NCBI GenBank assembly: GCA_037445065.1
Contig: JBBILD010000006.1
Coordinates: 137,187-201,186, forward strand
DNA length: 64,000 nucleotides
Direction: 5' to 3'
Source of the DNA: Myxococcales bacterium
Lineage (GTDB): Bacteria; Desulfobacterota; Binatia; HRBIN30
A program made the translations under genes and the position numbers. The notes below the pieces were generated by a model. It was not told where the DNA came from. It was given only the letters and a program-made list of their open reading frames with translations, and searched no databases. Position 1 is the stretch's first letter; every line of letters starts with the position of its first letter. Below are positions 25,138-49,682 of the stretch, in pieces.

Positions 25138-26178
25138 ATGGCGGAGGAGAAAATCCCGGGCAGGGGCGCGGCGCAGAACCCCGAGAACCGTTTCGAGTCC
25201 ATCCACATCGAGTGGGATGAAGAGGACCCGGAGGGTGCGCAAACCCAGTACTTTCGCGACGCCTCGCGTAGCATCTTGGCGGCAAACGACAGCCCGGATG
25301 TTCCGTTCCGTTTCAGCCTCAATCCGTATCGGGGCTGCGAGCACGGCTGTATTTATTGTTACGCTAGACCGAGCCACGAGTACTTAGGTTGGAGCGCGGG
25401 GCTCGATTTCGAAACCCGGATCCTGGTGAAGACCGATGCACCAGAACTCTTGCGGCGTGCTCTGTCTGCGCCCGGGTGGCAGCCGCAAGTGGTTGCTTTG
25501 TCAGGCAACACCGATTGTTACCAGCCGGCCGAACGAAGGTTCGGGCTTACGCGCGCCTGCCTCGAGGTGTTTCGGGAATTTCGGAATCCGGTCGGGGTCG
25601 TGACCAAGAGTGCACTGGTGCTGCGCGATCTCGAGCTGCTCGCGGATCTGGCTCGGCAGCGCCTAGTGCACGTGGCGATTTCCGTGACCACCCTCGACCG
25701 GGAACTTACGCGGCGCCTGGAGCCCAGGGCTGCGCAGCCGGCTAAGCGGCTGGAAGCCATACGGGAACTGGCCCGCGCCGGAGTACCGGTGGCAGTGATG
25801 ATTGCCCCTGTAATCCCCGGGCTGAACGATGAGGAGATTCCAGCGATTTTGAGCGCCGCCGCGGAGGCCGGGGCCATGAGCGCTGCTTACGTGCTCCTGC
25901 GCTTGCCAGCTCCAGTGGATCGCTTGTTCGACGATTGGCTCCAACGCCATCTCCCTGAGCGGCGCGGGCGCGTGCTCGGGCGGATCCAGCAATGCCGTGG
26001 CGGGCGCCTGAACGACGTCCGTTTTGGCAGCCGCATGCGTGGCGAAGGGGACTACGCAAAGCAAATCCAGGCGCTGTTTCGCTTGATGGCACGGAAGAGC
26101 GGACTGGATCGGCCACTGCCGGAGTTGGACACGACCAACTTCCGGCGGCCGCAAGTAGGCCAGCTCAGCCTTTGGTAA
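25138..26178 (+). CDS. radical SAM protein, PA0069/SPL-like family
   Basis: NPYRGCEHGCIYCYAR motif. Start at ATG 25138 (MAEEKIPG) avoids overlap with the divergent lipoprotein gene. Confidence 0.8.
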   Translation: MAEEKIPGRGAAQNPENRFESIHIEWDEEDPEGAQTQYFRDASRSILAANDSPDVPFRFSLNPYRGCEHGCIYCYARPSHEYLGWSAGLDFETRILVKTDAPELLRRALSAPGWQPQVVALSGNTDCYQPAERRFGLTRACLEVFREFRNPVGVVTKSALVLRDLELLADLARQRLVHVAISVTTLDRELTRRLEPRAAQPAKRLEAIRELARAGVPVAVMIAPVIPGLNDEEIPAILSAAAEAGAMSAAYVLLRLPAPVDRLFDDWLQRHLPERRGRVLGRIQQCRGGRLNDVRFGSRMRGEGDYAKQIQALFRLMARKSGLDRPLPELDTTNFRRPQVGQLSLW

Positions 26179-26304
26179 CTGAGAGACACCTTTGAGCGTG
26201 AATCCACGCTCGGGTTGGCTGGGCCCCCGTTGGGGATCGAGTCCCGGGTGGAGACTGGTCTGCGAGGGCGGCCGAGCACGAGCGGTGGTGAGGCACGTGC
26301 TCAT

Positions 26305-27249
26305 CTACGCTGCGGGTCCCGGATGAAGAAGCGCCCGCCAAACTTCCGCGACCGGCAGTCGGTGGGTGCAAAACACTCCAGGCCCGCAATGCCCGCACGG
26401 ATCTGGCCGGTAAAGAACCTGCACACACTCGCCGCGCGGCGCCCAAGTCGTGGGAGAAGTAGGCCCGAACAGAACGAGCACCCGCGCCGCGAGAATCGCG
26501 GCCACATGGCTCACGCCAGAGTCGTTCCCGACATAAAGCGACGCCCCATCGAGCCAGGTGGCAACTTCGCGAATGTCTCGATCTTCGAGCCTCACGGACG
26601 CATGCTGGATGTGCTCGACGCGGCCTCTCTCCGCCGGGCCGCGAATCTCGATCACCGCACCGTGGGTTTGCTCCACCCAGCGCCGAGCCAGCTCGCCAAA
26701 TCCGGCCCAGTTCTTGGCGCCGCTTCCGCTGCCAGCGTGGACGAAGAGCGTGGGGGCTGGCAAATTGCGCAACGCGGCACACGGGTGCTCGGGGCTAGGA
26801 GGGTGCAGGCGGAACAGCGAGCGCTGCAATTTCGCCGGCTCGACGCCCAAGCACCGCGCGTAGTAGACGGTAGCGTGCTCCCCTGGGTGCATACCGCGGA
26901 ACGGGAACACCTGCACCTCCTTTGCGCCGGTCGCCTTGGCGAGAGCCTCGGCAAAGCCGGGAAGCGTTGCCCCGCTCCAGGAGTAAGCGCGTTCGACGCC
27001 CCGAAGGTGGGGCGATTCTGTGCCCTGGTCCGCCGTGCGCGGGGAGTAAAGCCGAACCACCTCTGGGTGGTCCAAAGACAATGGGTACAAGTGTGGGTGG
27101 TGGATCAAGGAAAGCCAGGCCGAGCGAGCGACAAGCACAACCTCGGTGCCCGTTTGCATGACGGCGACGGCGGCAGGAAGGAAGCAGAGAAAATCGCCGA
27201 GTGCGCCCGGGAACAGGAGGAGGACGCGCCCCTTACGCCGGTCTTTCAA
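26305..27249 (-). CDS. glycosyltransferase family 9 (LPS heptosyltransferase-like)
   Basis: RVLLLFPGALGDFLCFLPA, HAGSGSGAKNW and GNDSGVSHVAA motifs. Probable TTG start at 27249 with an AGGTGAG RBS. The tracked ORF extends to 27642, but that would run through the cysK promoter and start. Confidence 0.7.
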   Translation of the reverse strand: MKDRRKGRVLLLFPGALGDFLCFLPAAVAVMQTGTEVVLVARSAWLSLIHHPHLYPLSLDHPEVVRLYSPRTADQGTESPHLRGVERAYSWSGATLPGFAEALAKATGAKEVQVFPFRGMHPGEHATVYYARCLGVEPAKLQRSLFRLHPPSPEHPCAALRNLPAPTLFVHAGSGSGAKNWAGFGELARRWVEQTHGAVIEIRGPAERGRVEHIQHASVRLEDRDIREVATWLDGASLYVGNDSGVSHVAAILAARVLVLFGPTSPTTWAPRGECVQVLYRPDPCGHCGPGVFCTHRLPVAEVWRALLHPGPAA

Positions 27250-27278
27250 TTGACTCACCTGGGAGGTGCCGGTATCTT
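27250..27278 (+). promoter_or_regulatory. sigma70-like promoter of cysK
   Basis: TTGACT (27250-27255), 17 bp, TATCTT (27273-27278). GAGGA RBS sits before ATG 27317. Confidence 0.4.
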
Positions 27279-27316
27279 GCCGTGTGTTCGCTACGCGGCC
27301 CTTCCGTTGAGGACCC

Positions 27317-28249
27317 ATGGAAACCTCACCTGCCCATTCGGTTTTGGAGCTCATCGGTAACACCCCGGTGGTGAAGCTGCAGCGGATCGCCACCCCCGAG
27401 ATGGCGGAGGTGTGGGGGAAGCTCGAATCCATGAATCCAGGCGGGAGCGTCAAAGACCGCATTTGTCGGGCCATGATCGAGGCGGCCGAAAAAGATGGCC
27501 GCCTCAAACCTGGGGGAACGATCGTGGAGCCCACCAGCGGCAACACCGGGATCGGGCTTGCTTTGGTGGCCGCGGTCAAAGGGTACCGGTGCGTGCTGAC
27601 CATGCCGGACACGATGAGCGAAGAACGACGCAGCTTGCTCACGGCCTACGGGGCGTTTTTGGAACTAACGCCTGACAGCAAGGGCATGCACGCGGCCGTG
27701 GCTCGGGCCGAGCAGATCGCGCGCTCGCACCCCGACTTCTTTATGCCGCAGCAGTTTCGCAACCCGGCCAACCCGGAGGCACATCGGCGAACGACGGCGC
27801 AAGAATTGTTGGAAGACTTTGAACGAATCGACGCCTTTGTTGCTGGGGTAGGTACGGGCGGCACCATTACCGGCGTGGGGCAAGTGCTCCGGGAGCGTAT
27901 GCCCGGAATCCGAATCTTCGCCGTGGAGCCGGCCGCCTCGCCGGTTTTGCGTGGAGGGGAGCCAGGGTTTCATAACATCCAGGGAATTGGCGCCGGGTTC
28001 GTGCCCGAGATCCTGGATACGACGATTTACGACGAGGTCATCGAGGTTTCGGACGAAGAGGCGACCTACTTTACGCGCCGCTTGGCACAGGAAGAAGGCT
28101 TGTTATTGGGAATTTCCTCGGGTGCGAACGTGTGCGCCGCGGTCGAGGTGGCGAAGAGACTCGGCCCGGGAAAAGTGGTTGTGACCATGCTGTGCGACAC
28201 GGGCCAGCGTTACTTGAGCACACCCGTGTTTCAGTGCGAGGGAATTTGA
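27317..28249 (+). CDS. cysK: cysteine synthase (O-acetylserine sulfhydrylase)
   Basis: PLP-lysine motif GSVKDRI, LIGNTPVVKL, TSGNTGIGLA, plus the glycine-rich loop. Confidence 0.9.
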   Translation: METSPAHSVLELIGNTPVVKLQRIATPEMAEVWGKLESMNPGGSVKDRICRAMIEAAEKDGRLKPGGTIVEPTSGNTGIGLALVAAVKGYRCVLTMPDTMSEERRSLLTAYGAFLELTPDSKGMHAAVARAEQIARSHPDFFMPQQFRNPANPEAHRRTTAQELLEDFERIDAFVAGVGTGGTITGVGQVLRERMPGIRIFAVEPAASPVLRGGEPGFHNIQGIGAGFVPEILDTTIYDEVIEVSDEEATYFTRRLAQEEGLLLGISSGANVCAAVEVAKRLGPGKVVVTMLCDTGQRYLSTPVFQCEGI

Positions 28250-34124: not shown

Positions 34125-34471
34125 GGGGGCGATCTGGTTTCGACGGAGGTGAGAAGGTACGTGGTTGCGTGCCCGGGAGCCTGGGTACCGGTGAACAACC
34201 CCAGGGCTGCATAAACGCAGACGAACCGCTTGCTCTGGCTGCCTAAAGCGCAGTCACGTCTCCCCGACTCGAGCCCGTAGGGTCGGGTGAGGCGTCGCAA
34301 ATCGGGCTAAGCGGTGGTGGCTGCTCGGACACCACCGACGAAAACGTACGAGCTGGCACTTGGATTCCCCGCCCGTGGGGCCGCCAAGTGCGAGAATCAA
34401 ACGCGTGGCTACGCACGTAGAGACCACGGCTGACTGCCTCCGGACGGGGGTTCGATTCCCCCCGCCTCCAC
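34125..34471 (+). ncRNA. ssrA: tmRNA (ssrA)
   Basis: 5' GGGGGCGATCTGGTTTCGACGG. Tag reading frame ...GCAGACGAACCGCTTGCTCTGGCTGCCTAA (..ADEPLALAA*). 3' T-arm/acceptor GGACGGGGGTTCGATTCCCCCCGCCTCCAC. CCA is not encoded. Confidence 0.85.
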
Positions 34472-36385: not shown

Positions 36386-39137
36386 ATGCCCGGCCGGGGT
36401 GGTTCGCGCCTTGTGGCCTCCGCACGCTTCGTTCTGCCTGGGAGCGCACTGGCAGCGTTGGCCGCCCTCGGCTTCCGGGGCGACAACGGCGGGGAGCGGC
36501 AGGCGGCGTGGCGAGCGGCGGATTTCGTGGCCTTCAGAACGGTGGAGGCCACGCGCGCTGGGACGGGTGCGAAGTCTCCCGTCCCCGCTCTGTTCGAAGC
36601 AGGCCGTGTACAGGCTGCGCCGCGGCAGGGACCTTCGGCATTGCCGCCGTTGGTGCAGGCGGCGGTGTCCAGAGCAGTAGGTAAGGATCGCGCCCAATTT
36701 CATGCGCGCCAGGAGTTGCAGAGCGACGCGATTCGCTTCGCGCAGCCCGGGCGAGGTCTCGAGGCAGAACTGCGCCCAGAGCACGGGCTGACGGTAAGGA
36801 GCGTGTCTGGCCACCAATGGGGCCTGGAACTGACGCGTTGGGGCTGTGGGAAAGATTTGCGCTCTGCCGGGCCGGTAACCGAGCAGCACCTGCTGGCAAA
36901 CGAAGTCACGTGGGTCCGGAACGGAGGCGGCCTCCGCGAGTGGTATGTGCATGGGCCGTTCGGGATTCAGCAGGGCTTCACGGTCGTGAGCGCGGGTGAG
37001 TCTTGTAGGCGCGAGGCGGCGGATGAGCTGGTACTCGAACTCCAGGTGCGTGGCAGCGTGATCGGCGAACCCGAGCAAGATTGGCGGAGCGTGCTCTGGC
37101 GCGACGCAAGGACGCAAGAGCCCGTCGTCCGCTATTCGGGTCTCATTGCATACGATGCGAACCACCGAGCGCTGCCGGCACGCATGGAGTTGGGGCGGGA
37201 CACGTTGGAGCTGCGGGTGGCGCTGGCGGGGGCGGAGTATCCAGTAGTGGTGGATCCGTTCGTGCAGGAGGCCAAGCTTACCGCAGCAGGCACTGCAGGC
37301 TTGGCCTTGTTCGGAGCGTCAGTGGCAATTGACGGAGACACGATCGTTGTCGGGGCGCCGGGCGTGGACTTTGATGTCGGGGCTGCGTACGTGTTCGAAA
37401 AACCAGCCTCTGGTTGGAACATCACGTCTACCTACTCGGCCAAGCTCACTCCCACGTTCGACGACACGTTTTTGCCTGAAGGGTTCGGTTACGCCGTCGC
37501 CATCTCCGGCAATACGATCGTCGTGGGGGCTCCGTTTTCCACGGTGCACGAGGCGCTCATGATGAAAGAGGCGATCGGCTTGGCGTATGTATACGTGAAA
37601 CCGGATACGGGCTGGGCCGACATGACCGAAACGGCCCGGCTCCGGCCAAGCGATGCCGGCTCGGTCGAGGACTTCTTCGGCTACTCGGTCGCCATCGAAG
37701 GCGACACAATCGTCGTGGGCGCTCCATCTCACACGCCGCCCCCCCGGGGGCGAGGCGTTGCAGTTCAATGGATCCACATACGTCTTCGTGAAGCCCGAAT
37801 CGGGTTGGTCCAACATGACTGAGACTGCCAAGCTCGAAGCAGAAGGAAAGTGGTTGGGTGCCTCGGTGGGCATCAGCGGTGACGTTGTTGTGGTGGGTGC
37901 CCCACTCCATGATCTTGAAGAAAGAGTGAATGCGGGCGCCGCGTACGTGTTTGCACGGCCCGCCGGCGGGTGGACTGGACATGTGCCGCCAGTTGCGAAG
38001 CTTACCGCCTCCGACGGGGAAGCGGGGGATCAACTGGGGCACAGCGCGGCCATCGATGGCGATACCATCGTCGTCGGCACCTTGTTCGACGACGTTGATG
38101 GAAGTGCGGACTAAGGTTCCGTTTATGTGTTTGCCCGCCCGAGCGGTGGCTGGCAGGACACGACGGAAACAGCCAGGCTGACGACCTCGGACGGGGCAGC
38201 CGAAGATTGGTTCGGGCTTGGCTTGGCGATCGAGCACGATACGATCGTTGCGGGAGCGCAGCAACACGACGTTGATAGTGCTTCGAATCAAGGCGCTGCT
38301 TACGTGTTCCTCAGGCCCTCGGGTGGCTGGGCAACGGCGACAGAGGACGGCAAGCCGTTGGCGTCGGATGGGCAAGCTGACGCCAACTTTGGTGTGTCCA
38401 TCGGTTTATCGGGCGGGGTGCTAGTGGCGGGTGCGCTCTTTCACGACCAGAACGGGAACGTAGATCAGGGCTCCGCCTATGTTTTCGCCCGGGAGTTGGA
38501 GCCCCCTTCTCCAACGCCGACCTCGAGTGCGACCCCAACCCCAACCCGGACCCCGACGCCGACCCTGACCCCGACGCTGACCCCGAGCGGCGCTTGCCCA
38601 GCGCTGCCGCGGCTCGACTGCGATCTACCAGCGCGAGCGTCTTTGTGGCTCCGCGACTCTCTCCTCGATCGCGGCGACCGGTTCGCTCTCCGCTTGTTGC
38701 GCAGTGCCCCGAAGCGCAAGCGGGCTGAGTTAGGCGACCCGACCGAAAGCGCGACGTACTCGGTCTGCATGTGGCAAGGTACGGAACCGATGGCACAAAT
38801 GCGAGCGTGGGATCGGAGGAAGTGGACCTCCGGGCCGCGCGGTTATCGGTACATTGATCGCTCGGCATTGAGTGACGGACTCGTCCTGCTCGGTTTGCGG
38901 ACTGGCGGCGATAGGTCGGCCAGAAGGACGCGCGTGATCGCCTTCGGCAGGGGGGTAGCCTTGCCGGAAGTGGCACTTCCCCTGAGCCTGCCGGTGCAGC
39001 TCACGGTTCAAGTGGTGGAGTCAGAGAGTGGCGTCTGCTTTGGCCAAACGTTTACCGATGCTCAGGTGATTGAAAACCGTGAGGATCCCACCGGGCGAAC
39101 ACGGGTGTTTCGAGCCGAACGGCCCAAGGCGCCGTAA
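36386..39137 (+). pseudogene. FG-GAP (integrin-alpha-like) repeat protein, disrupted by a frameshift and a nonsense codon
   Basis: About 9 repeats of the form FGxSVAIxGDTIVVGAP....GAAYVF spread over three tracked ORFs (36386..37822, 37653..38114, 38127..39137). The frame changes inside CCCCCCCGGGGG at about 37735-37750. An in-frame TAA at 38112 sits where sibling repeats have CAA (VDQGSAYVF). C-terminus has a PT linker plus an unknown Cys-containing domain. Confidence 0.65.
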
Positions 39138-39158: not shown

Positions 39159-40250
39159 TTATCGCGCCGCGTACGTTGTAAGCGGCGTCAACATCAAGGC
39201 CAGCGCGGCGCCGACCGGGAACGTGGCGAACCAGGCCAGCAACACCTCCGAGAACGTGCGCACATGGAGCCGCTCTTGAGAACCGCCGGCGCCGGCGATC
39301 GCGGCAACGGCGACGTGGGTCGCCGACACGGGCAGGCTCATAGCGCTGGCGGCAATGACGAGGGCGCTTGTCACTGCGTTGGCTGCAAAGCCGGTACGCG
39401 AATCGAGCGGAGCAATCCGGTAACTCATCGTCGAGGCAACGCGGCCTCCCCAAAACAAGCTGCCAGAGGCCATTGCCAGCCCCACCGCAGCGATGGCGGG
39501 TGCACTGGGTAGCGAGTGGGAGGCGTAAAGGACTCCTAGGACCTTGGGCAGATCGTTGGCGGCACGTGCAAAGCATACGGCCAGTGCGGACAAGAGGTGC
39601 AGGCCGTTCAGATGCTGCGTGATCGAAACCTGCGCAACCGGGTAATGCCGCTCGCAAGTACCGGCGCTAGCGGCCAAGACTAGTGGCGGCACCCACCGTT
39701 GTACGAGCACACCGCGGAATGGCTGGGCTTCGAGCGTGGGTGCCACAACGCAGAGGCAAGCCCGACTGAGATGTGCTCTGCTGAGAAGTTTGCTGAGGAG
39801 AACCCCGAGCCCTGCAGCAAGGAGGGGTGAGAGCAGCATGGGCGCGAGAAAGATACCGCCCAAAACACCAGCATTGAACGATTGGTGGTGTGCGAGCGCG
39901 GTGCCGACCAGGCTGCCCAGCAGGGCGTGGGTCGTGGAAACGGGGAGGCCGAGACAGGTGGCGAGCCCCACCGCGCCAGCACCTGCGAGCACGACGCTCA
40001 GGCGGAAACTGTCCGTGGCGAGCACATCAGCCGGGACCAGTCCGCTGCCCGCGAAACGCTCGGCAAGCTGCTTTCCCAAAGCAATGGCGCTCAGTGCCCC
40101 GGCAAAGGTCGCGAGCGTGGCCAGAGTTTTCGCATGCCGATAGCGAAACACCTGCGCCCCCACCGCGGTTGCGAAGCCTTTGAAGTTATCATTCGCGCCG
40201 TTTGCGAAGCCCAGAAGGAGAACAGCGCTGAAAAGCGACAGGTCCGTCAT
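39159..40250 (-). CDS. inorganic phosphate transporter, PiT family
   Basis: GFANGANDNFKGFATAVGA and a second PHO4 half. Start at ATG 40250 (MTDLSLFSAVLLL). Confidence 0.85.
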   Translation of the reverse strand: MTDLSLFSAVLLLGFANGANDNFKGFATAVGAQVFRYRHAKTLATLATFAGALSAIALGKQLAERFAGSGLVPADVLATDSFRLSVVLAGAGAVGLATCLGLPVSTTHALLGSLVGTALAHHQSFNAGVLGGIFLAPMLLSPLLAAGLGVLLSKLLSRAHLSRACLCVVAPTLEAQPFRGVLVQRWVPPLVLAASAGTCERHYPVAQVSITQHLNGLHLLSALAVCFARAANDLPKVLGVLYASHSLPSAPAIAAVGLAMASGSLFWGGRVASTMSYRIAPLDSRTGFAANAVTSALVIAASAMSLPVSATHVAVAAIAGAGGSQERLHVRTFSEVLLAWFATFPVGAALALMLTPLTTYAAR

Positions 40251-40381
40251 CGTAGCGACGAGGATCGGATTGGGCGTTGGGTGATCAAAGGGAGCCGGGG
40301 CCCTTACGTGCGCCTGCGCTGCCTCGGAGAGCGCTTCTCCAGTGCGGCGGTAGCTCCCTTTGTAGAGGCTGGTCCATCGAA

Positions 40382-41419
40382 TCAGCAACAACCGTTTTTT
40401 GTGTCGTTCACCGGGGCCTCGAACGGGGCGCTTGCGCCGCATCCGGGGAAGATTCCGTAATGGCGTGAAAAGTCGCCGATGAATTCAAAGTGAGGCGCAA
40501 AACGGGTCTGGCGCAGCATCCGCCAGGTGTTCCCGCAAACTGGAAAGACCCGGCCGGCGTCCATTTCGTGACGTTTGTCCAAGCGGAACCGGTGTGGAAA
40601 CCACGGGATGGTTCCACGATAGATCACCGCCTGCCCGTAGTCCTCGCAAGCGTCTTCCAGTCCTTCGAGCCGAAACATGCGATAGGTAGCCGAGTAAAAG
40701 CGCACAGCGCCAACGCGCGCGGCAAGTTTGGGGTCCGTGAGTTCGATCGGGCGATCTTCCACTAAGCGGGGATCGGTGAACCCAGTGCATCGCACCAGAC
40801 GGAGAAAATCGTTCCAGTAGAGTGCCCCTCCTAGGCATTCCGCGTAAAGCACGGGGTCATTTTGGACCTCGAGTGGCACGCGCCGGTCGGCGTAAACATC
40901 GGAAAAGTAGAATTCGCCTCCGAACTTGAGCAAGCGGTACACCCCGGCGAGCACTGCCGCCTTGTCGGCGGAGAGATTCACCACGCAGTTCGAGACGACG
41001 ACGTCGAAGCTCGCTGGTTCCAAATCGAGTTCTTCCAAGCGTTCGATGTACCCGCGCAGAAAACGCACGTTGGAGAACCCAAAGCGCTCGGCGTGCCATC
41101 GCCGGTACCGCTCCGCGACCGCAAGCTGCTCCTCCGTCATATCCACCCCGACGACTTCACCGCTCGGCCCTACGAGTTGCGCGAGCAGGTACACGTCTCT
41201 TCCAGCGCCGCAGCCCAGATCGAGAACGCGGCAGCCGCTGAGCAGTGGCGGGCAGCTGAGGCCGCAACCGTAGTACCGCTTCGCGACCTCCGGGTGAATG
41301 TTGGCGAGAAGTGCTTTTAGCCACGGTGGCGTGGCGACCGGGTCGCAACACGCCGTCGTCTTCAAGTCCGCGGACTGCTGCAGGGTTTTGCCGTAATATT
41401 CCTGAACGAGTTCATGCAT
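40382..41419 (-). CDS. arsM: arsenite S-adenosylmethionine methyltransferase-like
   Basis: N-terminal CCDPV cysteine pair, class I SAM fold VLDLGCGAGRDV, and further conserved Cys. GGGAGG RBS before ATG 41419. Confidence 0.7.
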   Translation of the reverse strand: MHELVQEYYGKTLQQSADLKTTACCDPVATPPWLKALLANIHPEVAKRYYGCGLSCPPLLSGCRVLDLGCGAGRDVYLLAQLVGPSGEVVGVDMTEEQLAVAERYRRWHAERFGFSNVRFLRGYIERLEELDLEPASFDVVVSNCVVNLSADKAAVLAGVYRLLKFGGEFYFSDVYADRRVPLEVQNDPVLYAECLGGALYWNDFLRLVRCTGFTDPRLVEDRPIELTDPKLAARVGAVRFYSATYRMFRLEGLEDACEDYGQAVIYRGTIPWFPHRFRLDKRHEMDAGRVFPVCGNTWRMLRQTRFAPHFEFIGDFSRHYGIFPGCGASAPFEAPVNDTKNGCC

Positions 41420-41846
41420 GCGGGTTCGCCTCCCTGAATGATGTTCTGTGGGATTCGTTGCGCGTTTGGTCGCACCAAGTCCTCGCCTCGTTACAATTGC
41501 CAGACTCGCTCCCATGCCGCGCCTCTCGACTCACCCTGTACGTTGCGAAGCAGCGTGAACCTCTTCTCGGGCCCCCGCATAGGCCCGAGAAGAAGCGCAG
41601 CCCGCAGATCGCGGAAAACCCAGTGTCGGCGCGCACGGGCGCGCTCGTCGGTACAGTTGCCTCCCGCTGTCAAGGGCGCCCGGAGCCACGGCGTTATCGC
41701 GCCTTCGCTGGCACGCCCAAACAGCGCCGACGGGCCAGGCAAGGGAAGCGCATGCAGTTCTGGCTTTGGACAGCCCTCCGAACTGAGTTGCGTGCGCTCC
41801 CGTGCAACGCGGAAACCGTCTCGCTTGTTGCGGACCGCACATTGCG

Positions 41847-42485
41847 TCATGGTGCGAGATGGACACCGCGCGCCAGTGAGGGCGGCAATTCGCTGAGGTG
41901 GGCTGGTTCGTCAATGTCAGTGAGCGCTGGAAACTCCTTCCAAAGCCACCCAATCTCGCGTAGGCGTGCCCTGGTTTGTGCCGCTACAGACGAAGTACTC
42001 CACGCGATGTCGGAAAACAGCCGCGGGTGGAAGTGGCGGGCGCCGAGAAGCACGTAGCCGCCGTCAGTACTAGGAACCAGCACCGCGTCGTGGCGCGTCA
42101 GCGCCTGCCCACAAGCCCTGAGGACGGAGCGTTCTAGGGCAGGACAATCGGTTCCAAGAAGCAGCACCGCATTCCCCAACGCTGCCGATCGTTCCGCAGC
42201 CCGAGCAAGGCGCCGACCTAGATCTCCAGCGCCTTGGTCTGTCCAACGGGTAACGCGAGCAGCGAGTCGCTTACGCCATGCCGTCCACACCGGATTCTCT
42301 GGCTCGGGAGTAACGCAGAGTTCTACTTCGCCGATACCCGAACGGCACGCTTCTCGAACCGTGTAGAGGAGCATGCGGCGGGCGAGAAGCGCGGCGCCTA
42401 CTTCTCCGAGCGCGGGGATGAGCCGCGTTTTTACGAACCCGGGAACGGGTGCCTTTGCGAACACCACAAGGCGCAAGCCCTTCAC
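41847..42485 (-). CDS. DUF2064 / TIGR04282-type rSAM-associated transferase 1 (arsenosugar-cluster glycosyltransferase-like)
   Basis: LRLVVFAKAPVPGFVKTRL...LLLGTDCP. Probable GTG start at 42485 overlapping the upstream stop. The tracked ORF extends to 43067 through low-complexity sequence. Confidence 0.65.
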   Translation of the reverse strand: MKGLRLVVFAKAPVPGFVKTRLIPALGEVGAALLARRMLLYTVREACRSGIGEVELCVTPEPENPVWTAWRKRLAARVTRWTDQGAGDLGRRLARAAERSAALGNAVLLLGTDCPALERSVLRACGQALTRHDAVLVPSTDGGYVLLGARHFHPRLFSDIAWSTSSVAAQTRARLREIGWLWKEFPALTDIDEPAHLSELPPSLARGVHLAP

Positions 42486-43189
42486 GGGTAGGCCCTCGCC
42501 AAATCTTCCGCAGGGACGCCGAGCCAATACAAGCAGCGAAGCCGCCACATGAGAAGGATCGTTCTCCATACCCCGTACGTTTCCCACCGGCGCCCAGAAG
42601 TGGTTACGCGCGAGCCCACGCAAGCCGGGCGGCCGAGCTGCTTCAGCGCACGGGACAGCCAGATGTCTTCCATCAACGGTTGGTCGGGATAGCCCCCGAC
42701 TTTCCAGAAAACGTCGCGGCGGACGAAAATGGCTTGGTCTCCGGTGGCAATCCCACTGAGTCGGGAGCGCAGGTTCATCAGCGCGGCAATCACTGGGAAC
42801 CAGCGGCTTCGACCTTCGATGCGTACGTCGAAGCGGCCCCAAAGGACCTGGGGGCGGGAGAGTGCTCGAGCGATTTGGTAGCACGCGTCGGGAGGCAGCC
42901 GCGTATCCGCATGCAGAAAGACGAGTGCCTCGCCGGTAGCCACGCTCGCACCTGCGTTCATTTGCCTTGCTCTTCCCCGCGGGGCGCACAAGACCCGGAA
43001 ACCAAGGGCACGCGCAAAGGCGACCGATCCGTCTTGACTGCCGCCGTCTACAATCAGCACCTCGCACCCAGCCCGGCGCAGTGGCAGCAAGTGCTGCAAC
43101 AACGAGGGGAGCTGCGTCATTTCGTTGAGCATCGGAACGATGAGGGAGATTTTCATCGTCTGCTTGCTACAGAGTCGTTCAGACTCCAA
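42482..43189 (-). CDS. GT2-family TIGR04283-type rSAM-associated transferase 2
   Basis: MKISLIVPMLNE...EVLIVDGGSQDGS...RGRARQMNAGA...LVFLHADTRLP. Confidence 0.75.
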   Translation of the reverse strand: MESERLCSKQTMKISLIVPMLNEMTQLPSLLQHLLPLRRAGCEVLIVDGGSQDGSVAFARALGFRVLCAPRGRARQMNAGASVATGEALVFLHADTRLPPDACYQIARALSRPQVLWGRFDVRIEGRSRWFPVIAALMNLRSRLSGIATGDQAIFVRRDVFWKVGGYPDQPLMEDIWLSRALKQLGRPACVGSRVTTSGRRWETYGVWRTILLMWRLRCLYWLGVPAEDLARAYP

Positions 43190-44055
43190 TCGTAGTCTCC
43201 GAAGCGGATGGGGATGCGGCCAGCCCGCAACGCCGTTTCTCGTTCAGGGGACAGCTCGAGTTCGCGTGCGTAGAGTGCCAGAAACTCCGCGAGCGAAGTC
43301 GCACCGCGGAAGCCCTGCTCGAAGTCGCCGCGATACCAGTGGAAGATCGGAGACACTTCCAAGTACGTCCCCACCAGCCGATTCCGACCGCGATCTCCGA
43401 GAAATCGGCGCGCTTGATCCTCGAGCTGTGCATCGAGTTCACTTCCTGTGTACGCCTCGGGCCGCAATGCTGGACAGCCGACACTGGCGCAATTGAGGGC
43501 AAAGTGAACCCGTGGGTCTCGGTAGCGCCCTGAGCCGCGAATGAGTCCGTGTTCGATATCGTCCAGAGAGACCGTCTTGCTCAGCAAGCGAATGAACGGA
43601 CGCTTCCAAGGCGATTGGAAGAGGGACCCCAAGTCCTTGATGGACTTGAGCCCCGGGTATCGGCTCAAAACGAGTTGGATGGTGAAGGCATTGTAGGCGT
43701 TGATGAGGAACGCCAGTTGCTGGCTCGCGGGCCAGGTGTCAAAGGCGGCTTGTTGCACCGCCGATAGGTTGGCCAAATAGGCATCCAGCGCTGCTTGATT
43801 TCTCTTGAATCCCGCGTAGTCCACAGTACTCGCGTGCCCTTCGTACACCCAACGCACGTGTTGTTTGAGGAGCGTGTCCCAGGAGCTGTGGTCCGCGAAC
43901 GCGAAAACAGGCCAGGCCGGGAACAGTCCGAGCAAGAGGAAGGAAAAGCAGGCTAGGAGGTTCCGGTGGCAGGTCGCGCCGCGCTGGGGCGTGCTCGCGG
44001 AAGGCCGCGGAGACTCGGCCGCTCTCCCTTTTCCGGTGGCAAACAGGGCTGCCAT
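43153..44055 (-). CDS. DUF547 domain protein, secreted
   Basis: FLINAYNAFTIQLV....HFALNCASVGCPAL (DUF547). Signal peptide LLACFSFLLLGLFPAWPVFAFA. Start at M24 of the tracked ORF. Confidence 0.7.
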   Translation of the reverse strand: MAALFATGKGRAAESPRPSASTPQRGATCHRNLLACFSFLLLGLFPAWPVFAFADHSSWDTLLKQHVRWVYEGHASTVDYAGFKRNQAALDAYLANLSAVQQAAFDTWPASQQLAFLINAYNAFTIQLVLSRYPGLKSIKDLGSLFQSPWKRPFIRLLSKTVSLDDIEHGLIRGSGRYRDPRVHFALNCASVGCPALRPEAYTGSELDAQLEDQARRFLGDRGRNRLVGTYLEVSPIFHWYRGDFEQGFRGATSLAEFLALYARELELSPERETALRAGRIPIRFGDYDWSLNDSVASRR

Positions 44056-44066
44056 CGCTCTCTGGA

Positions 44067-45062
44067 CTAGGGCCATGACGGCCGAGCCTCCGCTCCTGCC
44101 GAGGTTTGCAGGGCGCCACCGCAACTACTGCCCTGGCCCGCAGTGCAGCCGTAGCAATGGTCGGCAACCCGAATCGGCGAACCGGCAGGATCCCACTCGA
44201 GCAAGTCGCGCAAGTGGGCGGGCCGCAGCTGGCGGTTGAGCGGCAAGCGAAGCTGCTGGTTGAAGTCGCAATCGTACAGGTAGCCCTGCCAGTCCACACT
44301 CACGAGGGAACGGCACATGACCTGGTCTGTGTTGCCCGCCCGGAAGTGCTCCTTGAGCAATCGCAGGTAGTTGTGAAACTCGCCGCGCGAAAGCAGCCAC
44401 GAGCCGAAACGCTGAATCGGCATGTTGGTTAGAACGAAGAGGTGGTGGAAAACGATGCCGAAGCGCTCGCGTAGCTCCTGCTTGTACGCCGCTTCGAGGG
44501 ACGTTTGGTTCGGCGGTAGGCTGGGGCCGAGCGGATTGTATACGAGATGAAGCCGCAGGGGGGAGTCCTCTTGGCCGTAGCCAAGGGCGTTCAGCTTCCG
44601 TAATGCCGCAATGCTCTTTTCGAAAACACCCTTGCCGCGCTGGCGATCTACGTTGTCGGCGGAGTAGCAGGGCAGAGATGCGACCACCTCCACTGAGTGG
44701 TCGCGCAGAAACTCAGCCAGGTCTTCCTCGCCTGGCTCGAACAGGACCGTAAGGTTGCAACGGTCGATGACGCGCACCCCGAGACCATGCGCGGCACGCA
44801 CAAGATCCCGGAACCCTGGATGCAATTCCGGAGCCCCGCCGGTAAGGTCGAGGGCGGAGATCCGCCGCGCTGCGAGCACTTTTGGGATCAGCGCCAAGAT
44901 GTCTGCTTGCATCATCTCTGTGCGGTACGGCCCGGCGTTGACATGGCAGTGCATGCACGATTGGTTGCAGCGGTAGCCCAGGTTCACCTGCAGCGTGTTT
45001 ACGGGCCCGCGCTTCAGTGCGGGGAAATCTGTGGGCTCGAGTAGTGGCAAAACGGTCTGCAT
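44067..45062 (-). CDS. arsS: arsenosugar-biosynthesis-type radical SAM protein with C-terminal Cys-rich domain (ArsS-like)
   Basis: CNQSCMHCHVNAG radical-SAM cluster. C-terminal ...ADHCYGCTAGQGSSCGG (Cys-rich selenodomain-type tail). Confidence 0.8.
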   Translation of the reverse strand: MQTVLPLLEPTDFPALKRGPVNTLQVNLGYRCNQSCMHCHVNAGPYRTEMMQADILALIPKVLAARRISALDLTGGAPELHPGFRDLVRAAHGLGVRVIDRCNLTVLFEPGEEDLAEFLRDHSVEVVASLPCYSADNVDRQRGKGVFEKSIAALRKLNALGYGQEDSPLRLHLVYNPLGPSLPPNQTSLEAAYKQELRERFGIVFHHLFVLTNMPIQRFGSWLLSRGEFHNYLRLLKEHFRAGNTDQVMCRSLVSVDWQGYLYDCDFNQQLRLPLNRQLRPAHLRDLLEWDPAGSPIRVADHCYGCTAGQGSSCGGALQTSAGAEARPSWP

Positions 45063-45314: not shown

Positions 45315-45896
45315 ATGGAAAGAAAGTCCGCTCTCCTGGATCTTGTCCCGTATTCAGCCGAATCGGCACCGGAGAAAGCTAAGGAGCTAATGGAAAGGAT
45401 TCGCGCCAAGTATGGATTCGTTCCGAACGTGTATGCGGGGATGGCTCATTCCCCTGGCCTCCTCGAGACGTACCTAGTCGGGTACGAGCAGTTCCGGGAG
45501 AAGAGTGGGTTGAACCCAATTGAGCAAGAGGTCGTTTTCCTCACCATCAGCCGCTTCCACCGATGCCACTATTGCATGGCCGCGCACAGTCTGGTGGCCG
45601 ATTTGGTGGCGAAAATGCCGACTGACGTCCTGGATGCTGTTCGCAAAGGCAGGAGCATTCCTGACCCCAAGCTCGCCGTGCTAGCCTCTTTCACCCACGC
45701 CATGGTGGAAACCCGGGGAATGCCAACGCCCGAGCAGGTGCAGGAATTTCGCGCTGCAGGGTACACCGACCGGCACGCGCTCGAAATCATTCTGGCGTTG
45801 GCCCTCAAGACCATGAGCAACTTCTCGAATCACCTGCTGCAACCGGAGCTGGAGCCGGCTTTCCGAGCCTATGCGTGGGCGGAAGACCCTAGCTGA
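45315..45896 (+). CDS. carboxymuconolactone decarboxylase / AhpD-like peroxidase family
   Basis: CxxH motif RCHYCMAAH. AGGAGGAG RBS; the second ATG, at 45315, is preferred for RBS spacing. Confidence 0.75.
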   Translation: MERKSALLDLVPYSAESAPEKAKELMERIRAKYGFVPNVYAGMAHSPGLLETYLVGYEQFREKSGLNPIEQEVVFLTISRFHRCHYCMAAHSLVADLVAKMPTDVLDAVRKGRSIPDPKLAVLASFTHAMVETRGMPTPEQVQEFRAAGYTDRHALEIILALALKTMSNFSNHLLQPELEPAFRAYAWAEDPS

Positions 45897-46117: not shown

Positions 46118-46318
46118 TCATTTCGCGCCAGGCATGTTCGGGCGATCCGTGCTGACGTATCGGCGGATCGCTTGTCGTAGTAAGAGGAACTGCTTGCGGG
46201 CATTGCGGCAACCGGAACACATCATTGCATGGAACATTAGAGCGACCCTTTCCCGCCAACTCAGCGAACGCTCCTGCGCCTCGCTCATCAAGCGAGTGGC
46301 TTCACGGCAGCTCAACAT
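46118..46318 (-). CDS. zf-HC2 anti-sigma factor
   Basis: MLSCREATRLMSE...HAMMCSGCRN (H-x3-C-x2-C). Start overlaps the stop of the ECF sigma gene. Confidence 0.6.
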   Translation of the reverse strand: MLSCREATRLMSEAQERSLSWRERVALMFHAMMCSGCRNARKQFLLLRQAIRRYVSTDRPNMPGAK

Positions 46319-46974
46319 GGTTTGCCTCCCGAGAACCAGCGGTTCTCGAGGCACTCCCGCAAGCGCAGGCGCGCCCGGTGCAACATGACGTTCAAGTTCG
46401 TTGCCGTAATCCCTAGGCTGGTACAGATCTCGTGGCTTTCGAGTCCTAAAAACTCCCGCATCATGAAGACCCGTGCCTGGCGCGCGGGCAGATGCTCTAA
46501 GCACGCTTCGAAGACTTGCCAGAACTGTGCGTTTTGAAACGCATCTTCTGGGTCTTGCCAGGTACGAGGGCGTTCTTGAGCGAGCCAAAAGCCCTGCTGA
46601 TCGAACCACTCCCCTTCTTCCTCCTCGTCCTCCCGCAGCAATTGGCTGGCCTCAACCAGTCGCTGGCGCCGGCGCAGCTCGTCCGCGACTTTGTTTTTGA
46701 GGATTGCAAACACCCACGTCTTGAATGCCGAGCGGCCGGCAAAGGTGCTCGCGTTTTTCATTGCACCAGCGAGTGCCTCCTGAACGGCGTCCTCGGCTGC
46801 CTGGGGATCGGACAGTTGCAGGGTGGCGAACTTAAGCATTTGCCGGCGCAACTCACCGAGAAACCCCTCGTCGAGCGCCGCCACACTGGTTGCGCGAGCA
46901 CTGCCTAGCGAAGGTGGCGTCCGCGTCTCATTCATTGGTTGTCCGTCGTTCTGTTCGGCCAGAGTGTCTTTCAC
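46312..46974 (-). CDS. RNA polymerase sigma-70 factor, ECF subfamily
   Basis: Region 2 and region 4 (HEICTSLGITATNLNVMLHRAR) of ECF sigma factors are present. Confidence 0.85.
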   Translation of the reverse strand: MKDTLAEQNDGQPMNETRTPPSLGSARATSVAALDEGFLGELRRQMLKFATLQLSDPQAAEDAVQEALAGAMKNASTFAGRSAFKTWVFAILKNKVADELRRRQRLVEASQLLREDEEEEGEWFDQQGFWLAQERPRTWQDPEDAFQNAQFWQVFEACLEHLPARQARVFMMREFLGLESHEICTSLGITATNLNVMLHRARLRLRECLENRWFSGGKPC

Positions 46975-48132
46975 GCACGGGGGCAGGGAAAAGCTGGAAG
47001 TAAACTACCGAAGGAGAAACGAGCAATAAAGCTCCTGTCCAGCGTTTCCTTCCACTTCCAGGCCAAGCGGCCTTCAAAATGCAAAGGACCCCACGCCGCG
47101 ACGGCATAGCCAGGCCCGCAGCTCAGCAGAGATAGGGTCCATGCGCGCGGCTGGACCATTCGCAACGGTTCACCGCATAAAGCCGCCCGGAGGTTGTGGG
47201 CAAGGAACGACCCCGTGCGTGCAGCGTGGATGTCCGCGCCCGGCAACCTACCACCGGCGGGCGTGCACGTCTCTCCAACGCAGAAGACGTTGGGATGCGA
47301 GACGCTGCGGTGCGAACTGTCCACGAGTACGAACCCCGCCGGGTCGAGGTCCAACCCCGATTGCCGCAGCCAGTGCGGAGGGCGCACATTCGTGGCTGCA
47401 AGAACAGTATCTGCCGCCAAGTGCCTACCGCTGCCGAGGAACACGCCGGCGGAACTGCCCACCGCGTCCTCTCGGATCCACTTGATTCCAGCCGTGCGCA
47501 ACAACCGTTGGATACGGCGGCGCACGCCCTCCGGGTAGCCAGACAACAATCCTGCCTCACCGCTAATGAGCACAGTCTCGACCCCGAACGGTCCCAGTTT
47601 CTTCTGTGCGGCGAAGGCGAGTTCGACTGCATGACGTCCCTCGCCGATCACTACGATGCGAGAAAGCGTGCCTCGCTGTGCTCTGGTGACAAGCTGCTGC
47701 CAACCCGCGCAAAAGTCGGTTGAAGGACGGAGTGCTAGCAGGCGGTTTCCGCAGGCAGCGAGGCTCGAGACATCCGTTTCCCCTTCGAGTTCGAGCGAGA
47801 CCACCCCGTAGGCAAGTGTGGCGCCGCTCACGAACCGGGCTCGAGACTGCCGTGCGTCAATCGCTGCGATTCGGTCTTCGATGAAGCGGATCCTTGCCCG
47901 AGCGCATAGGGCCCGCAAATCGATCCGCCATTCTTCTTCCCGATAGTACCCGCCCATCCACTCAGGCAGCATCCCAACGGGAAACGAATACCGCGTGGGA
48001 GCCACGAGTATCACTTCCCCTGCATCGAGCGGCGTGCGGGCGAGCTGCTCGAGGACGAAGAGGTGGGCCTGCCCCCCCACCGGCCAGGAGTAGCCGTCGC
48101 CTGCCATTGTGGGTGGATTGCAGCGCCTCCAT
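46971..48132 (-). pseudogene. FAD-dependent pyridine nucleotide-disulfide oxidoreductase (NDH-2/SQR-like) with a frameshift in a C7/G7 tract
   Basis: Body VVIGEGRHAVELAFA...VFCVGETC is in the frame of ORF 46971..48107. The N-terminal Rossmann MEALQ..RRRLLLAGGG lies in another frame (ORF 47962..48636). The two frames meet at CCCCCCC, 48061-48068. Confidence 0.55.
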
Positions 48133-48323
48133 GGCTGACCGGCCCGCTCGCGGGCCGGCGCGCATTCCCGTACCTGGACAGTATGCCACAGGGTGATGCC
48201 CGTGGAATCTCATCTTGTCCGCGTTGGTCGGACTGGGCGCACGTTTCTTACCTGACGGGCAGCGTCGGTGGCATTTCCGCTGGACACGGATGTCTCCCGA
48301 GAAGGGCGATTCATGCCAGATCT

Positions 48324-49682
48324 TCAGAGGACCAGTTTGTACGCGAGACCGAACGCGCCGCTCAGCGCAATAACTGGGATCACGCCGGCTTGCTGGCGAA
48401 AGAGCAAGTAGGTGGCGCCAAGGGCAATGCATGCTGAGGGCCAGTCGAAACGGCCGCTGAATCCATGTGGCCAAAGCACGTGGTAAGTCAGGAACAATGC
48501 CAAATACACGATCACCCCGGTTACCGCCGCAGTAACTGCCTGTAGCGGCGCCGTGAGCGTCAGATTGCCGCGCGTGGATTCGACCATAGGGCCACCCGCG
48601 AGAATGAACAGAAAAGAGGGCAGAAAGGTAAACCACGTGGCCACTAGGGCGGCGAGTGCCCCTCCTGCAAAGGTGTACTCCGGGCCGAGGAGTGCCTGCC
48701 GGTAGCCGGCTACGAAGGCGACGAAGGCCACCACCATGATCAGTGGACCTGGAGTCGTTTCGCCGAGCGCTAAGCCGTCAATCATCTCTCCAGGAGTAAG
48801 CCAGCCGTAATGGTTCACAGCGGCTTGGTACACATAGGGAAGCACCGCGTACGCGCCCCCGAAGGTGAGCAAGGCGACCTTGGTAAAGAACCAAGTCATC
48901 TGCGTGAACATGCCACGCCAGCCGTCCGTTGCGGCCAGCCACGCCATTGGCACCACCCAAAGCAACGCACCGGCCACCAGCACTCGGGCAAAGCTGCGCG
49001 CGCGAAAGCGGGTGTGTTCTGGTGGGGGCGTGTCCTCGTCGATCAGCGCGGGAGTAAATTGCGAGACGGCCCCATTTGTTTTTCCCAGCAATCGCTCAGG
49101 AGCCAAGCGCCAGGCCAAGTAGCCGACCACCGCCGCGCCGGTCAAAATCGCCGGGAACGGCACCTGGAGGGCGGAGATGGCCACGAAGGAGGCGGCCGAA
49201 ATTGCCCAAAGCAAATGGCTGCGAAGCGTACGCGTGCCAATGCGGTAAGCGGCGTGCGCGACGATCGCGGTGACCGCCGGTTTGAACCCGTAAAAGAGCC
49301 CGGCCACAGCGGGCTGGTTGCCGAACGCAACATAGAGCCACGCTAGTAGGGTCAGGAGGATCAGCGACGGCAGGACGAACAGGGCTCCAGCAGCAATTCC
49401 GCCCCACGTGCGATGCAGTAACCAGCCAATGTAGGTGGCAAGCTGCTGGGCTTCCGGCCCGGGAAGCAGCATGCAGTAGTTCAGAGCGTGCAGAAAGCGA
49501 GGTTCGCTGATCCAACGCCTCCGCTCGACGAGTTCGGCGTGCATGATCGCGATTTGGCCGGCTGGACCACCAAAGCTCACGAAACCAAGTTGGAGCCAGA
49601 ACCGAAGCGCCTCCCGAAAGCTCACAGTCGCTGGTCGCGAGGTTGGTCCCTGGGAAGGGGGTTCCGTCGTCTGCGCTGTCAC
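48324..49682 (-). CDS. chrA: chromate ion transporter (CHR family)
   Basis: Duplicated ChrA halves with FGGPAGQIAIMH and LLTFGGAYAVLPY motifs. Confidence 0.85.
   Translation of the reverse strand: MTAQTTEPPSQGPTSRPATVSFREALRFWLQLGFVSFGGPAGQIAIMHAELVERRRWISEPRFLHALNYCMLLPGPEAQQLATYIGWLLHRTWGGIAAGALFVLPSLILLTLLAWLYVAFGNQPAVAGLFYGFKPAVTAIVAHAAYRIGTRTLRSHLLWAISAASFVAISALQVPFPAILTGAAVVGYLAWRLAPERLLGKTNGAVSQFTPALIDEDTPPPEHTRFRARSFARVLVAGALLWVVPMAWLAATDGWRGMFTQMTWFFTKVALLTFGGAYAVLPYVYQAAVNHYGWLTPGEMIDGLALGETTPGPLIMVVAFVAFVAGYRQALLGPEYTFAGGALAALVATWFTFLPSFLFILAGGPMVESTRGNLTLTAPLQAVTAAVTGVIVYLALFLTYHVLWPHGFSGRFDWPSACIALGATYLLFRQQAGVIPVIALSGAFGLAYKLVL

Follow-up and report, generated by a model that had tools for sequence, protein, structure and literature searches.

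An extra G splits a TIGR03169-like oxidoreductase gene downstream of chrA: a frame break best read as a real, fixed slippage mutation

Downstream of the chromate efflux transporter gene chrA, on the minus strand of the analyzed DNA (the window, a stretch of 64 kb), lies an oxidoreductase gene whose start and body were found in different reading frames when the sequence was read directly. The location relative to chrA agrees with a preliminary description of the region, since chrA (48324-49682) is situated upstream of the gene on the same strand. The features of the oxidoreductase gene and of its surroundings are listed in Table 1.

Table 1. Positions of the features discussed in the text, in coordinates of the window.
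Feature	Position	Strand	Remarks
tmRNA gene	34125-34471	+	tag peptide ADEPLALAA
FG-GAP repeat protein gene	36386-39137	+	broken in both strains, by different lesions
C7 run in the FG-GAP gene	37739-37745	+	one nucleotide longer than the C6 of the sister strain, frame-breaking
TAA nonsense codon (CAA in the sister strain)	38112-38114	+	within the FG-GAP repeat motif DQGSVYVF; non-homopolymer lesion
Arsenosugar-biosynthesis cluster	39159-45062	-	intact, well conserved
AhpD-like gene	45315-45896	+	strand opposite to the arsenosugar cluster; beyond the sigma/anti-sigma genes
zf-HC2 anti-sigma factor gene	46118-46318	-	follows the ECF sigma factor gene
ECF sigma factor gene	46312-46935	-	PRK12544/TIGR02943-type; immediately downstream of the oxidoreductase gene
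Oxidoreductase body QAHLFVLEQLAR ... PCPRA, frame B	46971-48071	-	Pyr_redox_2, TIGR03169-like; stop codon at 46971-46973
Terminator TGA of frame A	47962-47964	-	product from the ATG at 48132 has 56 aa
Frameshift site, G7 run in sense (C7 on the plus strand)	48072-48078	-	junction of both frames
First 18 codons MEALQSTHNGRRRLLLAG, frame A	48079-48132	-	strand beta-1 of the FAD-binding Rossmann fold and start of GxGxxG
Internal ATG, frame B	48105-48107	-	opens the 378-aa ORF MAGDGYSWPVGGQAHL..., database entry P0001
Alternative upstream ATG	48165	-	start chosen in the gene call of the sister strain
chrA, chromate efflux transporter (TIGR00937)	48324-49682	-	upstream of the oxidoreductase gene; intact in the window

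Frame A is opened by the ATG at 48132-48130 with MEALQSTHNGRRRLLLAGGG and encodes MEALQSTHNGRRRLLLAG-GG ahead of the shift. Past the seventh G it continues with AGPPLRPRAARP..., beginning AGPPLRP. The long ORF of frame B (46971..48107, minus strand) comprises 378 codons, starts with MAGDGYSWPVGGQAHLFVLEQLAR... and lacks both strand beta-1 (RRLLLAG) and the first Gly of the GxGxxG motif. The plus strand between positions 48060 and 48089 reads gaggtgggcctgCCCCCCCaccggccagga, which places the C7 run at 48072-48078. The break therefore lies within the interval 48055-48135, as had been described, whereas the run itself had been put at 48061-48068 and thus about 10 nucleotides away from its actual position.

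Removal of one G fuses the two frames into a protein of 386 aa. Residues 14-372 of this repaired protein align in a single stretch to positions 2-365 of the 365 positions of the NCBIfam profile TIGR03169 (E 8e-75). All 14 homologues, which are 36-45% identical to it, start with xRLILAGGGHAHLxVL, matching the repaired N-terminus. In an alignment of 16 sequences G18 and G20 were found to be invariant and G19 nearly invariant, and the junction is encoded in one frame by 15 out of 15 relatives (the 14 homologues and an orthologue from a sister strain). A chance juxtaposition of two ORFs is excluded, because the repaired protein matches TIGR03169, the N-termini of the homologues and an uninterrupted orthologue. 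The frame break in the oxidoreductase gene is thus confirmed, and with it the proposal that a single gene is split over two frames at a G/C homopolymer.

The repaired protein was recognized by the Pfam profile PF07992 (Pyr_redox_2) with 59.8 bits, above the gathering threshold of 26.1. Against TIGR03169 it scored 252.4 bits, which is under the curated cut-off of 310 bits. The protein belongs to a related subfamily of TIGR03169 and is not the equivalog itself. TIGR03169 (Nterm_to_SelD) comprises pyridine nucleotide-disulfide oxidoreductases of unknown function that are sometimes fused to SelD. The repaired protein shares with this family the end-to-end alignment to the profile, the motif LILAGGGHAHL and the length; it differs in the score below the cut-off and in having neither a SelD fusion nor a SelD neighbor, and its best homologues are only 43-45% identical. 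No AIRS/SelD domain was found among the called genes of the sister contig L001 within 10 kb or among the window genes that were scanned.

Window and sister strain share two deviations: the second dinucleotide-binding motif is GEGRHA in place of the family consensus GGGAAG, and GE stands for the conserved GD (window positions 47640-47660 and about 47090; protein residues 163-168 and 286-287). Since these deviations occur in both strains, the orthologue group is divergent even where it is intact. The nearest solved structures are remote, namely the NDH-2 structure PDB 4nwz (E 4e-6) and sulfide:quinone reductase (SQR; E of about 8e-3). The earlier label "NDH-2/SQR-like" can be kept at the level of the superfamily with two dinucleotide-binding domains (Pyr_redox_2), which the protein shares with these enzymes. 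As a statement of closer kinship it has to be replaced by TIGR03169, the similarity to NDH-2 and SQR being only remote; nothing points to quinone or sulfide chemistry.

The order of oxidoreductase, ECF sigma factor and anti-sigma factor genes (46118-48165, minus strand) was also identified in a Sideroxydans MAG, whose oxidoreductase is 43% identical. In three JGI contigs an oxidoreductase homologue with 38% identity adjoins a DUF2064 gene. The loci compared for this linkage were L011 (6001-8147) and L012 (296-2904). The oxidoreductase gene is the first gene of a conserved oxidoreductase, ECF-sigma and anti-sigma module, and in the window this module adjoins chrA and the arsenosugar cluster. 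The latter comprises ArsS (TIGR04167, 456 bits, in the Cys and not the Sec form), a DUF547 protein, TIGR04283 and TIGR04282 transferases, an ArsM-like methyltransferase and a Pit-like transporter. The linkage of a TIGR03169-like flavoprotein to ECF sigma/anti-sigma and arsenosugar genes may help to assign a function to the family. The glutathione synthetase encoded in the window has its nearest matches among named Candidatus Binatia proteins (56-58% identity), and the genome is therefore probably one of the Binatia.

For comparison, a sister strain with about 97% DNA identity to the window was available as GCA_964574465.1 and as Logan contigs. Its Logan contig L001 (SRR11582147) aligns to window positions 58185-36916 over 21.2 kb with 94.6% identity, and a second contig, L007, belongs to the NCBI MAG GCA_964574465.1. 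The sister protein P0061 (411 aa), which is also encoded on a 571-kb contig, is the only other member of the 90%-identity cluster of P0001. It crosses the junction without interruption as LLLAGGGQAHLFVLE (also RRRLLLAGGGQAHLFVLE, and in the longer stretch ...MEALQSTHNGRRRLLLAGGGQAHLFVLELLAR...). The junction codons are GGT GGG GGA CAG in the sister strain versus GGT GGG GGG G CAG in the window. Within the surrounding 150 nucleotides L001 and the window are identical except for GGGGGA-CAG versus GGGGGGGCAG and two further substitutions. Compared with the sister, the window allele therefore carries a synonymous A-to-G change, which completes a run of six G, plus one additional G.

These two alleles are the only ones in a collection of 5.8 billion proteins, where an intact protein on the background of the window strain is absent. 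Protein patterns derived from P0061 and an exact 25-mer gave no match in the GTDB representative genomes. In the JGI metagenomes a 20-mer was unmatched, and a 21-mer gave four matches without homology in the flanks, which were discarded as chance matches. At the 3' end of the gene the window oxidoreductase terminates at a TGA where the sister strain has TGG (Trp) and runs on for 19 codons (46950-46975, minus strand). This extension overlaps the start of the sigma factor gene, and a 1-nt indel then follows at 46957. The C-terminal tail shows no conservation in the family.

The alleles bear directly on the idea that a full-length enzyme is still produced by recoding, whether through a +1 shift of the ribosome on GGG-GGG-G or through transcriptional slippage with loss of a G. 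Since the Gly codons are identical in both frames, the tRNA could re-pair, and the overlap of the two frames is long. The shift site, however, is absent from the orthologue and from 14 out of 14 aligned homologues, and programmed frameshifting was rejected, the two-frame arrangement not being conserved among the relatives. After the run the frame-A codon is GCA, so that a slow codon or a stop is absent, and nothing resembling a stimulatory element was seen 3' of the run. Transcriptional slippage of high efficiency is a property of long A/T runs and is not known for G7. Recoding is therefore considered extremely improbable.

The preliminary description regarded the break as a repetition of a pattern in the FG-GAP gene, which was borne out: the C7 run at 37739-37745 is one nucleotide longer than the C6 of the sister strain and breaks that gene. 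It is the only G/C run of at least 7 nucleotides in the 64 kb besides 48072-48078. The FG-GAP gene of the window is additionally interrupted by the in-frame TAA listed in Table 1. The sister copy carries a lesion of its own outside any homopolymer, a 1-nt deletion (GTGGTGG to GTGCGG) in the N-terminal region at the window-equivalent position 37251. The stretch around this deletion has a dN/dS of 0.19, a value that reflects purifying selection, and can thus be taken as coding. For the whole FG-GAP gene the N/S ratio was 31/19 compared to 133/206 in the conserved neighbors (Fisher p = 0.003).

Further genes of the region are damaged as well. The chrA gene of the sister strain has lost 2 nt (one GC unit) in CGCGCGCGC, at the window-equivalent positions 48996-48997, and is thereby split. 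This break falls exactly in the linker between the two CHR halves (window 48990-49000; L001 9160-9190). With lengths of about 228 aa and about 207-219 aa, the halves are similar to the pairs of short-chain CHR proteins. The split halves might still be functional in the sister strain.

Between about 49.7 and 55.4 kb of the window, from chrA to a VTT-domain gene, no stable frame could be identified. This part shows more than 30 indels relative to the sister and dN/dS values of 0.6-1.05. Frame plots based on GC3 and codon usage, which are noisy over the whole window, flagged frame-hopping only at 52-54.5 kb. Among the remnants at 49.7-55.4 kb are PT-rich linkers, dockerin-like DxNxDGxVTVxE repeats and a segment resembling cohesin. 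These approximately 5 kb appear to be what is left of at least one large secreted-protein gene.

Taken together, chrA, the oxidoreductase gene, the FG-GAP gene and the 5-kb wreck are best read as accessory genes that are decaying independently in two conspecific strains. It was considered whether a genomic island at the tmRNA gene might have caused this decay. The surroundings of the tmRNA gene (34125-34471) show neither an adjacent integrase nor an obvious island boundary, and the idea was dropped because no integrase adjoins the gene. An ORF pair at 25663-27645 (minus strand) that is contiguous in frame was also set aside; according to the gene calls of the sister it represents a normal gene end and an antisense shadow.

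Systematic homopolymer error in the assembly was one of the two explanations that had been offered for the breaks. It implies that the organism has G6 and an intact gene, and that the extra G results from homopolymer miscalling or polishing. Several observations fit. The two longest G/C runs of the window are the suspect sites, and each carries a +1 event. The frame-breaking indels in otherwise whole genes are in both cases +1 changes at G6 or C6, a classic context for errors, and with 2 of the 23 G/C runs of at least 6 nucleotides off by one, a modest error rate per tract would be sufficient. Furthermore, the oxidoreductase gene shows no additional lesion and no significant relaxation of constraint.

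A comparison of 27 conserved genes of the window, spanning about 28 kb of CDS, with the independently assembled sister strain turned up no indel, however. Between L007 and window positions 29942-8963 (about 21 kb, 97.3% identity) there are six indels, all of them in intergenic spacers. Eleven conserved genes in the range of 36.9-58.2 kb, compared with L001, were likewise free of indels and had dN/dS values of 0.11-0.44 (PHO4/Pit-like, ArsM-like, DUF2064, GT2, DUF547, ArsS, AhpD-like, anti-sigma, sigma, VTT and a Pyr_redox_dim protein). Three long ORFs in other parts of the window (1088, 1005 and 716 aa) are uninterrupted and have Pfam matches.

The Logan contig L006 (SRR11582170) stems from the window's own strain and covers sequence away from the focal site. 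Over 13,824 bp it is 99.986% identical to the window with 0 gaps, and all 39 of 39 homopolymers of at least 5 bases, including eight 6-mers, are of equal length. For the focal site itself, the database entry of the exact 378-aa product P0001 names both NCBI and Logan as its origin. Since P0001 can be encoded only with G7, its Logan source label gives an indirect indication that a second assembler reproduced G7 at this site. In addition, the gene with the companion break, FG-GAP, also contains a substitution-type nonsense codon, and the substitution and non-homopolymer lesions of the sister show that real decay takes place in these genes. Systematic homopolymer error is unlikely on these grounds, and a miscalled base at the oxidoreductase run is likewise given only a small chance.

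The other explanation offered, that G/C tracts act as contingency loci, would mean that phase-variable G7/C7 runs reversibly toggle the oxidoreductase-sigma module and the FG-GAP surface protein. Both 7-long G/C runs do sit where a 1-nt change toggles a gene, one target, FG-GAP, is probably secreted or located at the surface, and G7 slips more readily than average sequence. Characterized poly-G/C contingency loci, however, typically have 8 or more residues, so that G7 is short for this class, and the tract is not conserved, the sister having GGGGGA.

Long G/C runs are also not enriched in the window. The numbers of runs with 4, 5, 6, 7 and at least 8 nucleotides are 369, 80, 21, 2 and 0, respectively, whereas a second-order model predicts about 5 runs of 7 and about 1.2 runs of 8. 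If anything, long G/C tracts are depleted. Moreover, only two alleles occur in the protein collection and an intact allele of the window type is absent, the TAA in the FG-GAP gene cannot be reversed by slippage, and a cytoplasmic flavoprotein is an atypical target. A contingency locus is therefore unlikely, and the toggling of both targets in particular was assigned a very low probability.

A related proposal regards both C7/G7 runs as low-grade reversible switches, with the sampled strain off at both and the sister on. If this were true, one switch would act on the first gene of the oxidoreductase-ECF-sigma-anti-sigma operon, and a secreted FG-GAP protein would be controlled by the other. This proposal is judged to be very improbable. 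In a weaker variant, chrA, the oxidoreductase gene and the FG-GAP gene could have been lost in parallel in co-occurring strains, with their loss being favored.

The best-supported reading is a real fixed frameshift, which differs from both explanations given before. More specifically, the break is probably a real, recent and strain-specific loss-of-function mutation by slippage, without any regulated device. The N/S ratio of the oxidoreductase gene is 20/19 compared to 133/206 in the neighbors (p = 0.17), the derived changes at conserved columns are symmetric, the lineages of window and sister having 4 each, and a second lesion is absent. If genuine, the frameshift would have to be recent, because there is no significant relaxation and the derived changes are symmetric. 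The absence of signs of a long-dead gene fits a very recent mutation and an artefact equally.

The mutation presumably arose in two steps. In the ancestor, the codons GGG-GGA for Gly19-Gly20 of the FAD-binding GxGxxG motif would have changed synonymously to GGG-GGG. This change from GGA to GGG would have created a slippage-prone run of six G after GGT, into which replication slippage may then have inserted one G (G6 to G7). The order of the two steps is the one that we infer from the comparison of the alleles, and the reads of the window strain would be expected to carry G7 uniformly.

Translation from the native start would lose the frame after LLLAGGG and reach a stop 36 codons further on, giving a peptide of 56 aa, and the remaining 378-aa ORF would be translatable only from the internal ATG at 48107. 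Flavoproteins with two dinucleotide-binding domains need the GxGxxG motif and the Rossmann fold. The enzyme is very probably inactive, because strand beta-1 and the first glycine of GxGxxG are cut off from the body; this conclusion follows from the known requirement for GxGxxG.

For annotation, the deposited 378-aa protein should be regarded as the truncated product of a frameshifted gene, for which a pseudogene flag is due. The G7/C7 breaks are a poor basis for inferring either a bad assembly or phase variation in this lineage. The region also offers a small and clean example of decay at the strain level, in which strains of about 97% identity carry different lesions in the same accessory genes.

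In contingency loci of Neisseria, Haemophilus and Campylobacter a G/C run in the 5' part of the CDS likewise determines which frame is open. The window run differs from these in its length of 7 nucleotides, in a sister strain without the run and in the lack of enrichment, and a nonsense codon further disables the companion FG-GAP gene. Frameshifts by homopolymer slippage are the commonest class of young bacterial pseudogenes. With pseudogenes formed in this way at short homopolymers the oxidoreductase gene shares a single +1 change, located in the longest mononucleotide run of its surroundings, the loss of an essential N-terminal motif and unrelated lesions in other accessory genes nearby, and its orthologue is intact in a strain of about 97% identity. 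The break in the oxidoreductase gene differs from such cases in nothing substantive; it is of a kind already known and adds nothing new to it.
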